A DNA stretch of 32,000 bases, from positions 2,040,001-2,072,000 of the forward strand of contig CP091279.1 of the NCBI GenBank assembly GCA_021650915.1. The letters run 5' to 3'. The stretch is from Candidatus Brocadia sp. (GTDB lineage Bacteria > Planctomycetota > Brocadiia > Brocadiales > Brocadiaceae). Positions 10,973 to 24,805 of this stretch are shown here, piece after piece. Under the pieces are notes generated by a model, which saw only the letters and a program-made list of their open reading frames with translations, was not told where the DNA came from and searched no databases. A program made the translations under genes and the position numbers. Numbering within the stretch: position 1 is the first letter of the stretch; every line of letters begins with the position of its first letter.

Positions 10973-12905
10973 GCTAACCCGACTTTCGCAATTCGAGGGG
11001 TATACAACCCGCTGAGCCAGGAAAATCAAGGGGTCATGTAAAAAGGTCGGCACTACAGGCCGACCTGTCCGGATGCGTAAACCTTGGGCGGCGGTTGTTC
11101 AGGAAGCGCCAATCCCAACTGTGCCAAAAGGAGGGCAACATCCTTCTCCGGCTGGGTATAACGGCTCATGACAATATGACGGCCATCCGTAGTCGGTAAA
11201 TGAACGTCTATCATTTGAATGCACGACAGTTTTTCCAAAATCGCTTCAGACGTCAGCCCTCCGGCCCTCCCCCGCGCAAGATTGCGCAGTGTCGTGTGGA
11301 GACAAAAAGCCAAAAAGGAAACAAAGATATGGGCTTCAATTCTCCGTTCCAATTGATGCCATAGGGGGCGGACGGAAAGAGACCCCTTCAAGTCCTTAAA
11401 TGCCTGTTCAATCCGCGTCAACAGCAAATAATTTTCCCAGACGGTTTCTGGCGCGGCGACCTGCATGTTGGAACGAAGCAAATAACGCCCCTCGCGCCGA
11501 TACGCCTGCCTCAGGCGTTCCCGATCCAAACTGAACCGGAACGTATTCTCATTGACCGGTTCCTGCGGTTTGGGAATGGAGATCGTGACCAGTCTGTAGT
11601 CTCGTCCGGCTTCTTTCTTTAACGCGCCAATATGCATGAGCAGGTCATCGCGCGTGAGGGCTTTTCGATTGCGAAGTTCGCGCAGACCCATCCACAAACG
11701 TCTGAGTCTGCGCCTACGCATGGCACGCTCCTTAGACACCCGGTCATGGCTTTCCACGTAAACGTAAAACTCCGATTCCTGCCGAAGAACTTTCACGCGG
11801 ACGCTCTCCCTCGCCCGCATCCAGGTTTGTTCGAGTAGCGGTTTTTCTACTCTCGTCAAATGCCCCTTCGGAGTCCCAACCAAATAATCAATCCCGCGCT
11901 CACGCATCTTTTCCAACATCTCCTCCGTTGGAATACCGCGATCCATAAGCCAGGTGCGCCGGAATTTCCCATACCGCTTTTCAATCCGATCCAGAAATTC
12001 CTCCGGCGTTGCGGTGTCTCTGGTATTGCCCGGATACACTTCGTAGGCCACGGGAAATCCTTCCGGCGTTAACACCAACGCCACTACCACCTGCACGCAA
12101 TCCGAACGTTTGTCCCGGCTATATCCAAACCGTTTCTTACTCCCCGATCCAGTCGGAGGTGGGTCACTTTCAAAATACGTACTCGTCAAATCATACAGCA
12201 GTACATCGTACTTCGCCCCAAAGAGCTTGCCCCACTTCTCCTTTAAATAGGCAAACAGCTCGTCCCGATGCTCAAGCAACAAATCCAAACAACGATACGC
12301 CTTGTCCTTCTGCGCCAGGGAATAATCCTCTCCCAGCAGATCGCCTATTGCGCTGCGCACGTACCACTCACGGTGAAAACGAAATTCGCTTCCCGGATCG
12401 ATCAACCGGTAACAGACAAGCGCCTTCAGCATATTCAACCAGCTTGCTCCCCACTCCCGTGGATGGCGCAGCTCTATTTTGTCCAACCTCACCCGAACTG
12501 TCTCACCATCCGGTATCGGCATGGCTTCCCGGTCATCCGGAAACAATGCCAGTTGTCTTGGTTTCGGTTCTTTACCCGACACCGCCTCTATCGTCCGAAT
12601 CCACCCAGCCCGTTGATTGTCATTGAGTTCTCCCAAATAGAGAACCTGCCGCTGCACCACCCTTCTTCCGGTAACCCGGCGGTTCTCTACCACACTCCAA
12701 TACCGGTGGGTTTTCCCATCCTTCGTTCGTGTCTTTTCCCGGAGAAACATGCGAGCATTTTCGCACTTCCTCCTGCATGCGTCAAGAGGGTAGGTCGGCA
12801 CTACAAGCCGTTTTTAAAATTCACCCCTTGAATATCACGGGTTTCCTGGCGACTCTTGCCCAAAAATAAACTTTTTTGGGCGCGAATTGCGAAAGTCGGG
12901 CTAAC
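10973..12905 (-). mobile_element. IS4/IS1634-type insertion sequence (about 1.93 kb, apparently intact)
   Basis: Terminal inverted repeats share an 18-bp identical core CCCGACTTTCGCAATTCG (10978-10995, inverted at 12883-12900) with a partly matching extension. Subterminal inverted similarity is also present (gccaggaaa...caaggggt...taaaaa). A single long transposase ORF lies inside. No clear target-site duplication was seen. Confidence 0.85.
11053..12750 (-). CDS. DDE transposase, IS4/IS1634 type
   Basis: 565 aa from the ATG at 12750. The N-terminus MFLREKTRTKDGKTHRYWSVVENRRV...VLYLGELN is the characteristic start of this transposase group. The track ORF begins 17 codons earlier at a GTG. Confidence 0.9.
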   Translation of the reverse strand: MFLREKTRTKDGKTHRYWSVVENRRVTGRRVVQRQVLYLGELNDNQRAGWIRTIEAVSGKEPKPRQLALFPDDREAMPIPDGETVRVRLDKIELRHPREWGASWLNMLKALVCYRLIDPGSEFRFHREWYVRSAIGDLLGEDYSLAQKDKAYRCLDLLLEHRDELFAYLKEKWGKLFGAKYDVLLYDLTSTYFESDPPPTGSGSKKRFGYSRDKRSDCVQVVVALVLTPEGFPVAYEVYPGNTRDTATPEEFLDRIEKRYGKFRRTWLMDRGIPTEEMLEKMRERGIDYLVGTPKGHLTRVEKPLLEQTWMRARESVRVKVLRQESEFYVYVESHDRVSKERAMRRRRLRRLWMGLRELRNRKALTRDDLLMHIGALKKEAGRDYRLVTISIPKPQEPVNENTFRFSLDRERLRQAYRREGRYLLRSNMQVAAPETVWENYLLLTRIEQAFKDLKGSLSVRPLWHQLERRIEAHIFVSFLAFCLHTTLRNLARGRAGGLTSEAILEKLSCIQMIDVHLPTTDGRHIVMSRYTQPEKDVALLLAQLGLALPEQPPPKVYASGQVGL

Positions 12906-20215: not shown

Positions 20216-20552
20216 CATAATTTGAAAAAAATATCTATCTTTTACCCCACGCATGAAAAATCCCTTATTCAATTACTTGTATACACACCTGTCCGGGTGA
20301 AGTCGTATTATACCGCCGCAAACTCCATATCTATCAACCTTTCACGCTTATTGCTACTGCAATCGATGTGTCTTTGGGTTATATCGTATTACTTCATAAA
20401 CATCTTTAATGTCCAATCGGCAATTGCTCATTTTTTCTCTATACCTCAGCAATGCATGGTTATTATTAATCGTCTCATAATAGAACACACATTAAGCTGT
20501 CCGTTTAGCGCTTCAATATTGGAGAAGGAAAGCATACGACGAATCAATACAA

Positions 20553-20818
20553 TTATGAGACCCTTAATATAAGCAAAATATGTCCTACAAGGACACCAAT
20601 AAGAAGGAGGCAGAAGTCAAACAGAAAGGGGCAAATCTTTAGTATTGACAAACCTACCTCAACTCTTTGGATCATCTGAGAAAGATGCTTGTCGCCTTTC
20701 AGTCTTTCCCGTAAGCGCTTTCTCCCCTGGCTCACGGTACTAAAGCCGTCCCCCCCATTATTTCTCATATCGCAGTTCCGCTAAGTCTGCCAACCCGATA
20801 GAACAAGTCCATCGCCAT
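20553..20818 (-). pseudogene. frameshifted copy of the small DnaA_C-like HTH gene
   Basis: It starts with the same ATGGCGATGGAC as the 22755 gene, but the frame hits a stop after about 17 codons (MAMDLFYRVGRLSGTAI*). The homologous C-terminal part ([29 protein letters not shown]) continues in another frame and runs past the original stop. Confidence 0.6.
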
Positions 20819-20939
20819 TTGCCTTATTATACCCCGGTCCTTTTTTATTTCATCAAAACTTTTTTTCGTCTATTTGCAGAGCGTAGCAAAATGGTCTGCT
20901 ATTCCAAAATCAGATCAGATCAGACACAAATTATTTGTC
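20621..20939. repeat. 320-bp direct repeat, copy 1 (decayed)
   Basis: Aligns along its length with 22561-22881. I counted 50/60 identities over 20641-20700 vs 22580-22639. It contains the frameshifted copy of the small HTH gene and its promoter region. Confidence 0.8.
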
Positions 20940-21145
20940 ATGAATAAAGATTTTTCCCCTTTTTGCTTTTGTTTATAATCACAAATCAAGGTGCGGCCAC
21001 GTCCTCCCATTCTTGTCGGGAGGGCTTCACACCTCATCATCAGCACAATGGTAGCATGCCTCCTTAGGGTACTGATGGGAATACATCAGGTATAATCAGG
21101 AAGATAACTCCTTGTTATACAATCAATTATGCGGCCTCGGGTCGC

Positions 21146-21215
21146 AATTAACGTGAACTCAGCCGACGGCAGCTCGTGGAGCGGGATGACGGTTGGCTGG
21201 AGCGACTTGTTAGGG
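21146..21215 (-). other. attC (integron cassette recombination site) 1
   Basis: The minus strand reads CCCTAAC-AAGTC-GCTCCAGCC...GGCTGAGT-TCAC-GTTAATT. That is R''-spacer-L'' ... L'-spacer-R', with one extra C in the L'' arm. The 5' half (CTAACAAGTCgcTCCAGC) is shared with sites 2 and 3. It lies 36 nt downstream of the RidA-like stop. Confidence 0.6.
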
Positions 21216-21250
21216 CTCATCAAGTCCGTGTTCTGGAGAACCGCTTCAGC

Positions 21251-21673
21251 TTAGGCGTCACCTTTGATAATTGCCGTAACACGTATTTCCACGCGCATCT
21301 TTGGGTCGCCCAGCGCGGGAACTCCAATGCATGTCCAAATAGGCGCCCGATCACCCATACGCTTCCTGAATTGATCCGTCATGATGGAAAGATGTTCATC
21401 TCCAATGAAATTGGTTGCAGTAGGTACATGATAGGAGTTTACATGAACGACATGCTTCCATGATGCTCCTGCCATAGCCAGTGTACGTTCTAAATTATCG
21501 AATGCCTGAATTATTTCTTTTTCAAGAGACTCTGGAAACTCCCAATCGTTGTTCCAACCACCTTGGCCAGAAGTTTCGACTCGGTTGCCGTCTCTGAAAG
21601 CTTGCGAATAATGAAACTTCTTCAAATTCACATCGCCATAGCCTGGTGTGACAAAAAATTCAATTTTGCTCAT
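21251..21673 (-). CDS. RidA/YjgF/endoribonuclease L-PSP family protein (cassette-borne)
   Basis: 140 aa with GAGGA 5 nt upstream. YSQAFRDGNRVETSGQGG, IIQAFDNLERTLAMAGASWKHVV and MRVEIRVTA follow the YjgF/RidA fold signature. Confidence 0.8.
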   Translation of the reverse strand: MSKIEFFVTPGYGDVNLKKFHYSQAFRDGNRVETSGQGGWNNDWEFPESLEKEIIQAFDNLERTLAMAGASWKHVVHVNSYHVPTATNFIGDEHLSIMTDQFRKRMGDRAPIWTCIGVPALGDPKMRVEIRVTAIIKGDA

Positions 21674-21782
21674 ATCTATCCTCGTTCGTGATATGTGGAA
21701 TTAGCCCTAATGCGGAGTTAAGTCGCAGCACCGTAGGGGCGTATCGGTTTTGAACTCCGCATTCTCCCTGAGTGAAGCGAAG

Positions 21783-21849
21783 GGAGAACGATAAAACTTA
21801 GCGGCTGGTACGGCTTTTTGTGCCAGTCCGCTGGAGTGATTTGTTAGGA
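21783..21849 (-). other. attC (integron cassette recombination site) 2
   Basis: The minus strand reads TCCTAAC-AAATC-ACTCCAGCGG-ACTGGCACAAAAAGCCGTACCAG-CCGCTAAGT-TTTATC-GTTCTCC. The arms pair imperfectly with bulged bases in the '' arm. The stop codon of the DUF2442 ORF lies inside the site. Confidence 0.65.
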
Positions 21850-22091
21850 GACTTTTTTATTTTTACAGAATCTAAATATAACGTGTCGGGACATATATCC
21901 TGCTCATGTGGCCATACGACAGTTCCATGTGCCGCCCTAGCCTGCTGAAAATAAATTTTGTCTTTCAACTCGGTGAATACACCGAAATTAAGCAAAGGAC
22001 TGCAATCGTACATGCCAACCTCATTATTTGAGAAGGTTATCTCGAGTTTATAGTCATTTCTTGCCTTTACTGCTTTTACTCTTGGATTCAT
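21798..22091 (-). CDS. DUF2442-domain protein (cassette-borne)
   Basis: 97 aa. VKAVKARNDYKLEITFSNNEVGMYDCSPLL...VWPHEQDICPDTLY matches DUF2442. The C-terminal tail is read through the attC site. Confidence 0.8.
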   Translation of the reverse strand: MNPRVKAVKARNDYKLEITFSNNEVGMYDCSPLLNFGVFTELKDKIYFQQARAAHGTVVWPHEQDICPDTLYLDSVKIKKSPNKSLQRTGTKSRTSR

Positions 22092-22094
22092 AGT

Positions 22095-22364
22095 TTACCT
22101 CAAGGGATCGATTTTAAATGGCTGTTGTCCGTTAACTGCCAAATCCCAGTCAGCCATAAGCTCATCTTTGTGAATTTCAATCCAGGCCAAAACCAATCGC
22201 ATTTTGGCTGGAGGCAATTCTCCGTCAAGAAGTTCACCGTCAGGAATTGAAATAACGGCTTCGCTATTCTGATATTTTACATGGATATGTGGACGTTTAT
22301 GCTTCCTGTTATCAATAAAATAGAGCGACACAACGATACCAAAAAACATTGATATTGTTGGCAT
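22095..22364 (-). CDS. DUF4160-domain protein (cassette-borne)
   Basis: 89 aa with AAGGAAA upstream. MPTISMFFGIVVSLYFIDNRKHKRPHIHVKYQN...AWIEIHKDELMADW is the typical DUF4160 N-terminus. It lies 3 nt upstream of the DUF2442 gene, the usual paired arrangement. Confidence 0.8.
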   Translation of the reverse strand: MPTISMFFGIVVSLYFIDNRKHKRPHIHVKYQNSEAVISIPDGELLDGELPPAKMRLVLAWIEIHKDELMADWDLAVNGQQPFKIDPLR

Positions 22365-22390
22365 ATTTGTTTCCTTACATTTTGTTTGTG

Positions 22391-22448
22391 GTCTAACGAT
22401 AAAGTTCAGCGGCAGGCGAAGCCTGTCCGCTGGAACGACTTGTTAGAT
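22391..22448 (-). other. attC (integron cassette recombination site) 3
   Basis: The minus strand reads ATCTAAC-AAGTC-GTTCCAGCGG-ACAGGC-TTCG-GCCTGC-CGCTGAAC-TTTATC-GTTAGAC. R''=RYYYAAC and R'=GTTRRRY are mutually complementary. Spacers are 5 and 6 nt. L'' has one extra C relative to L' (extrahelical G on the bottom strand). The central stem is 5-6 bp. Confidence 0.8.
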
Positions 22449-22569
22449 ACCCTTTGTTAGATACCCTTTATCCTCTTTTTTATTAAAGCAGGATTTCTCC
22501 TGCCATGAATTACAGCAAGGACTATTATCTTTTCTTTTTCAAAAAGAACAGAAGGGGTCACAGAAGGGG

Positions 22570-24805
<2,236 letters not shown>

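Follow-up and report, generated by a model that had tools for sequence, protein, structure and literature searches.

Does the chromosome of Candidatus Brocadia, an anammox planctomycete, harbor part of an integron? The question is raised by a stretch of 32,000 nt from assembly GCA_021650915.1 (contig CP091279.1, positions 2,040,001 to 2,072,000; hereafter the window, in which position 1 is the first letter). The initial annotation, made from the sequence alone, placed three attC sites on the minus strand of this window, together with RidA and DUF4160/DUF2442 cassettes, next to an N-ATPase operon and with no integrase gene, an arrangement termed a CALIN (cluster of attC sites lacking integron-integrase). 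Our analysis supports this central reading. With a probability of about 0.88, we consider the locus to be a CALIN, that is, a short integrase-less fragment of an integron cassette array that is fixed in the Candidatus Brocadia chromosome and cut short at both ends.

The three sites lie on one strand (minus), with distances of 599 and 634 nt between neighbors. attC A (22391–22448, 58 nt) is intact, with R'' (ATCTAAC) followed by a 5-nt spacer, an L'' carrying an extra C, L', a 6-nt spacer and R' (GTTAGAC); 6 of the 7 bases of this core pair are complementary. The cores of attC B (21783–21849, 67 nt) are TCCTAAC and GTTCTCC, and those of the partly decayed attC C (21146–21215, 70 nt) are CCCTAAC and GTTAATT. 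Both keep the AAC and GTT triplets and deviate in the outer core bases, so that the R' consensus claimed for all three sites, GTTRRRY, applies to A but not to B or C; the cores GTTCTCC and GTTAATT are also present at sites in other genomes. Similarly, the claimed spacers of 5 nt between R'' and L'' and 6 nt between L' and R' are found in A and B, but C has 5 and 4 nt, which appears as a 2-nt deletion in the covariance-model alignment. An 18-mer common to the three sites, CTAACAARTCRYTCCAGC, occurs three times in the window versus 0.07 expected. The initial annotation took this nearly identical 5' half as a mark of sedentary chromosomal integrons; it corresponds instead to the general attC consensus. 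Pairwise identity among A, B and C is only 61–64%, while each is 79–84% identical to sites in other phyla (79% between attC C and a Nitrospira attC in locus L046).

We also folded the sites to check for the two extrahelical bases, as the initial annotation had suggested. In the fold of the bottom strand of attC A (–16 kcal/mol, z –5.2), the R box pairs over 7 bp and is separated by an unpaired spacer from the L box, in which a G and a T bulge out at a distance of six bases. The same arrangement of bulges is found in attC-aadA7. attC B folds less well than A, and the fold of C is barely more stable than that of shuffled sequence. In the covariance-model alignments, the extra C and A on the top strand are recovered in A, B and C alike, with additional mismatches in C, where several pairs are non-standard or broken. 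Both bulges are therefore seen directly in the fold of A and by model alignment in all three sites, with the reservation of the extra mismatches in C.

A search pattern satisfied by all three sites (CTAACAANNCNNTCCAGC, a gap, GCTNANNT, a gap, and GTT) was scanned over one genome per GTDB species, in stretches of 8 kb (tiles); loci with L numbers are genome stretches retrieved for comparison. At least 120 genome stretches matched, versus approximately 9 expected by chance on a rough estimate, and the hosts among the matches listed are Proteobacteria, Nitrospirota, Omnitrophota, Planctomycetota, Chlorobi, Cyanobacteria and some Archaea. The attC consensus reappeared at positions that the pattern leaves free: of the 123 sites among the matches listed, 84 have GGAC or CGAC behind CCAGC, and GTT is most often followed by AGGC. 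Strong homologues of the integron integrase IntI are encoded on at least 12 of the matching tiles, and all seven that were checked pass the NCBIfam model TIGR02249 (integron integrase), with 409–485 bits versus a cut-off of 265.

Because the Rfam models gave zero matches at sites A, B and C, we built proxy covariance models. The first, R1, was built from pattern-matching sites; it identified two or more sites on 23 of the first 60 tiles examined, with 17 sites in one Xanthomonas tile and 10 in one Rhodanobacteraceae tile, and gave 68.5, 54.8 and 37.0 bits for A, B and C, respectively, with no other match in the window. To reduce circularity, the second model, R2, was built only from 44 array sites of other genomes that do not match the search pattern. 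The L box of these reference sites shows compensatory changes (covariation 0.345 versus 0.130 in shuffles), and 85% of its cells are paired, compared to 25–38% when the partner columns are slid. With filters off, R2 gave 64.3 bits for A, 43.1 for B and 30.3 for C (E = 3e-14, 9e-9 and 1.6e-5), and every other match on either strand of the 32-kb window was at or below 11 bits. The plus-strand reading of attC A reached only ~9 bits with R2, versus 64 on the minus strand. Given these scores and their strand specificity, we conclude that A, B and C are attC sites and that the minus strand is the top strand, as had been proposed; the suggested covariance-model check, made with the proxy models, came out in its favor.

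The genes between the sites argue for the same reading. As annotated, they lie on the minus strand as RidA and DUF4160/DUF2442 cassettes, and both the Pfam matches and the recurrence of these genes beside attC sites elsewhere bear this out. The first gene of cassette 1 (22095–22364, minus strand) encodes a DUF4160 protein (Pfam PF13711, E = 9e-25) resembling the toxin DhiT, with 98.7 bits on the NCBIfam model toxin_DhiT, for which the cut-off is 100. It is followed by a gene for a DUF2442, DhiA-like antitoxin (21798–22091, minus strand; PF10387, E = 1e-12). This open reading frame (ORF) had been thought to end before attC B; instead it reads into the site, its TAA stop lying within it at 21800–21798. 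DUF4160/DUF2442 pairs adjoin attC sites in four other loci (L111, L040, L021 and L099; best identity 58%). dhiTA (DUF4160/DUF2442) has been validated as a type II toxin-antitoxin system in Dickeya dadantii (PMC8198452). A toxin-antitoxin cassette would plausibly help the array to persist.

The RidA-family gene (Ribonuc_L-PSP; 21251–21673, minus strand; PF01042, E = 1e-21) has homologues 75–78% identical in attC arrays of other genomes. In L144, ridA is followed by a 68.8-bit attC in an array of at least 10 sites, and in L142 and L143 it is the last gene of arrays with at least five and at least two sites, with an attC after the gene. The 5' untranslated regions of ridA in the window, L142/L143, L144 and L141 can be aligned from TTAGGGCT on, directly after the G of the GTT core, and differ upstream. 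Such a shared start after the G of the core is the signature expected at an integrase crossover point and gives indirect evidence of recombination by an integron integrase; we therefore place the boundary of the RidA cassette in the window at A|TTAGGG (21711–21705) rather than after R' of attC B, where the initial annotation had put it.

On the basis of this boundary homology, the sequence at 21705–21767 (minus strand, 63 nt) is probably a decayed fourth attC, which we denote B2 and which would form the 5' boundary of the RidA cassette. It comprises an L' (CGACTTAAC), the spacer TCCGC and a relic R' (ATTAGGG), with an 11-bp perfect inverted repeat (GAATGCGGAGTT/AACTCCGCATT) in the leader of the RidA cassette. 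The core triplets of B2 have changed together, from AAC and GTT to AAT and ATT, and R2 gave it 2 bits or less. In L141 (870–990), a RidA gene 84% identical to that of the window lies outside any array. It is preceded by a mutated R' relic, GTGAGGG, and followed by a short hairpin that runs from CCCTAAC to GTTCAAC, and seems to have been a cassette once, with an attC that has collapsed.

Upstream of attC A, the 3' remnant of a parE-family toxin gene (22457–22561, minus strand) is left as a 34-aa ORF whose stop codon lies in a duplicated R'' core of the site. The duplication consists of a 14-bp unit, AAGGGTATCTAACA, present twice in tandem at 22440–22467. The remnant alone has no Pfam match, and its identity comes from BLAST to ParE_toxin ORFs of other arrays: its last 29 aa share 65.5% identity with the C-terminal end of a ParE_toxin ORF in L129, which is itself followed by an attC, and parE precedes attC in other loci. 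Given the likeness to the ParE C-terminus and the stop in the duplicated core, the first cassette is a 5'-truncated parE cassette.

Together, these features suggest how the locus may have arisen. The boundary homology with other arrays suggests that the cassettes were put together at another place by an integron integrase that cut at G|TT, and that the fragment later lost, or never brought, intI, attI and Pc. On the minus strand, the order is the 5'-truncated parE cassette with attC A, the dhiTA-like cassette with attC B, the probable relic B2, the RidA cassette with attC C, and the first 135 nt of a group II intron. At either end, the array now breaks off abruptly against a copy of an anammox-specific repeat, the two copies having diverged.

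We next consider how widely the array is distributed. Several Candidatus Brocadia assemblies have contigs that encode exactly the RidA protein seen in the window. The window matches contig LAQJ01000176.1 of GCA_000987375.1, a Candidatus Brocadia contig, with 99.99% identity, in line with the claim that the array adjoins a divergent N-ATPase-type operon in an anammox genome. Its identity to five other assemblies, of which one includes a 3.25-Mb contig, is 99.1–99.6%. At least seven independent assemblies, built from different samples, contain the same array and junctions, always with the same three sites. The array is thus real and fixed in the chromosome of one Brocadia species. Cassette content does not vary among the assemblies, which gives no indication of mobility at present. 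The DUF2325 gene of three other Brocadia-type genomes has other genes upstream and no adjoining N-ATPase operon, and hence these genomes offer no conserved DUF2325-atpD interval for an empty-site comparison.

Additional attC sites were detected in other Brocadiaceae, at L140 11359–11410 (minus strand), L090 7745–7804 (plus strand), and L069 4868–4926 and 5599–5658 (minus strand), with 45–55 bits in R2. They follow small genes, e.g., a PepSY gene and a toxin-antitoxin-like pair, and no IntI was found in the stretches of these three loci examined.

Given the attC sites, we asked whether the locus qualifies as a CALIN, which Cury et al. (2016) define in IntegronFinder as two or more attC sites on the same strand, spaced by less than 4 kb and without an intI in their vicinity (PMC4889954). 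The window extends more than 9.5 kb on either side of the array, and it is for the window that the absence of an integrase holds. There, phmmer with IntI1 gave no match, and tblastn with nine queries (IntI1 and eight IntI proteins from the comparison loci) gave only E > 0.1 for an IntI gene or pseudogene. Among the larger ORFs of the window, Pfam identified no tyrosine recombinase; it identified respiratory and biosynthetic enzymes, the N-ATPase-type operon and one DDE transposase. The region immediately in front of attC A contains no intI with attI and Pc; it holds the parE remnant, one copy of the repeat and, in divergent orientation, the N-ATPase operon. The locus, whose three same-strand sites are separated by less than 4 kb and have no intI in the vicinity, falls under the definition of a CALIN and has no recombination machinery of its own in the window. 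The class is common: Cury et al. (2016) reported 279 CALINs in their set of complete genomes, of which half came from genomes that lack IntI, and 95% of published CALINs have no recognizable intI pseudogene nearby (PMC4889954).

Some observations weigh against this conclusion. As proxies, R1 and R2 go back to a search pattern derived from A, B and C themselves, though R2 leaves out pattern-matching sites. Both attC C and the relic B2 show degradation, and the latter is missed by the covariance model. Cassette content is invariant among assemblies. The stabilizing role considered for the toxin-antitoxin cassette and the promoter upstream of the array (see below) are both predictions. Finally, the claim that the array is integrase-less is borne out for the window, which phmmer and tblastn covered, and the locus could be a split-off part of a complete integron.

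This last point leads to the strongest of the alternatives, which we nevertheless regard as unlikely: the array would be the detached part of a complete integron whose IntI is encoded more than 10 kb away, and its cassettes would still be mobilized in trans, making it active rather than a fossil. About half of CALINs are found in IntI-encoding genomes (Cury et al., PMC4889954), attC A is intact, and the scattered attC sites in other Brocadiaceae (two in L069 and one each in L090 and L140) suggest repeated cassette traffic in the family. However, neither the window nor any of the Brocadia tiles examined yielded an IntI, and the array shows no difference between assemblies. Moreover, it is truncated at either end, and decay has affected two of its four sites. 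attC A, and probably B, could still serve as substrates for an IntI supplied in trans, and sites C and B2 look inactive.

A second explanation, in which the three hairpins are generic palindromes of the repetitive extragenic palindromic (REP) or terminator type that happen to resemble attC, is effectively refuted. In its favor, the sites are imperfect palindromes after ORFs, and for attC C the top-strand fold is no more stable than that of shuffled sequence. Against this, the model scores are strand-specific (64 versus 9 bits for attC A), the extrahelical bases occupy canonical positions, and no further copies are present within the 32 kb. A terminator scan gave a single weak match inside a site (plus strand, attC B), and no T-tract terminator follows any site on the coding strand. 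Moreover, the same sequence class is found in arrays beside verified IntI genes, and the cassette genes recur in those arrays. An assembly or binning artefact joining foreign DNA to a Brocadia contig, toward which the closest relatives of the cassettes and the intron fragment in other phyla might point, can be dismissed in view of the same junctions in at least seven independent assemblies, on 3.25-Mb and 32-kb contigs with 99.1–99.99% identity, and a cassette GC content of 0.39–0.46, close to the 0.45 of the window.

We return to the array as a CALIN and to its downstream end, where the 5' fragment of a group II intron (about 21003–21145, minus strand) lies on the cassette strand and starts directly after R' (GTTAATT) of attC C. 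The fragment scores 54.3 bits with Rfam RF02012 (group-II-D1D4-7; gathering score 34); over 135 nt, it shares 90% identity with the 5' end of a group II intron in L030. Rfam detected no domain V/VI in the window, and there is no intron ORF in the window either. In L030, the intron (1–523 and 1224–1733) has a 55-bit attC directly upstream and the orientation of a PIN-type toxin-antitoxin cassette, the order being intron, cassette, attC, intron. A metagenome scan with a 21-mer from the intron identified five further relatives (L131, L132, L135, L136 and L137). In all seven 5' junctions (the window, L030 and the five relatives), CGTT and four T-rich bases precede GCGAC or GTGAC; six of the seven read CGTTAnTy, and L030 reads CGTTGTTT.

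At least three of the seven junctions are in cassette arrays, with the L132 intron lying within an array. L136 has an attC-like L'-R' end and an ORF-less intron copy of ~850 nt; L131, L135 and L137 have weak attC-like hairpins or none. The full-length relative in L135 encodes RVT_N, RVT_1 and GIIM domains, and an endonuclease domain was not detected in it. The IIC-attC introns described so far are found in the bottom strand of attC, in antisense orientation to the cassette genes (PMC3001079), and top-strand attC introns have been reported as rare exceptions, namely an E. cloacae IIC intron and the IIB intron UHB.I2 (PMC7923331). We tentatively raise the possibility, which we consider less likely than not, that the intron lineage found here homes to the top strand of attC, directly after R' and in the orientation of the cassettes, as a mirror image of the bottom-strand IIC-attC lineage. 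If true, such a lineage would cap and fragment arrays and, by sitting at cassette boundaries, could take part in forming or shuffling cassettes.

The repeats that bracket the array are direct, ~320–330 bp long and 83–88% identical to each other. The upstream copy (22560–22881, minus strand) contains a 61-aa ORF (22755–22570) and a sigma-70-like promoter match (22792–22763; TTGATG-18-TATAAT, 10 of 12), from which the cassettes could be expressed if the prediction is correct. In the downstream copy (20621–20939, minus strand), the small ORF is broken by a frameshift. Homologues of the 61-aa ORF were found only in Brocadia and Jettenia, whose genomes carry several each, and such a homologue is named "Transposase" in one UniRef entry. 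A 12-bp unit, TGACCCCTTCTG, occurs twice in tandem at the end of the upstream copy (22547–22570), and this short tandem duplication and the one at 22440–22467 both sit at junctions.

Two differences among assemblies were seen elsewhere in the window. The homology of the 3.25-Mb contig of GCA_021463075.1 stops at 20462, where a HAD hydrolase follows in place of DUF2325 (L001, 11209 onwards); this position is a rearrangement breakpoint ~160 bp beyond the downstream repeat copy. Farther away, a DDE_Tnp_1 transposase gene (11053–12801, minus strand) lies in a segment of ~1.9 kb (10981–12900) that is missing from four other assemblies of the same species and is an insertion-sequence polymorphism.

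The cassettes indicate that Brocadiaceae have received integron cassettes, including toxin-antitoxin modules and a RidA-family enzyme, from the pool that circulates in Proteobacteria, Nitrospirota and other phyla. Anammox bacteria widen the host range of known CALINs, and we found no paper that combines integron, attC and Brocadia. The array also offers a clean example of decay, with its truncated first cassette, relic attC and intron-capped end. The truncation at both ends, the relic site, the intron cap and the flanking repeats had previously escaped notice. The locus is nonetheless an unremarkable example of a well-known class, found in a host that has received little study, and reveals no new mechanism; the top-strand attC-associated group II introns are the sole part that could lead to something new.

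Compared with known systems, the intron fragment shares with the group IIC-attC introns (the S.ma.I2 lineage; Leon, Quiroga, Centron, Roy) a position right at an attC hairpin inside a cassette array. It differs, as does its relative in L030, in lying on the top strand, in cassette orientation and just after R', a comparison made by insertion strand. The toxin-antitoxin pair has the organization of Dickeya dadantii dhiTA, with the DUF4160 toxin gene first and the DUF2442 antitoxin gene second, a few nucleotides apart; in Brocadia, however, the pair is an integron cassette, and the toxin is predicted from sequence, with a DhiT score just under the NCBI cut-off. Like the sedentary chromosomal integrons of the Vibrio/Xanthomonas type, the array is chromosomal, carries a toxin-antitoxin cassette and has stable content across strains. 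Unlike them, it has no intI and only three to four sites, and these sites share 61–64% pairwise identity versus 82% within the Xanthomonas array in L022. The closest match is the CALIN, with which the locus shares sites less than 4 kb apart on one strand, the lack of intI or an intI pseudogene nearby, small size, and cassettes of toxin-antitoxin or unassigned function. Nothing essential sets the two apart: the Brocadia host is an anammox planctomycete, and its array is visibly truncated at both ends.

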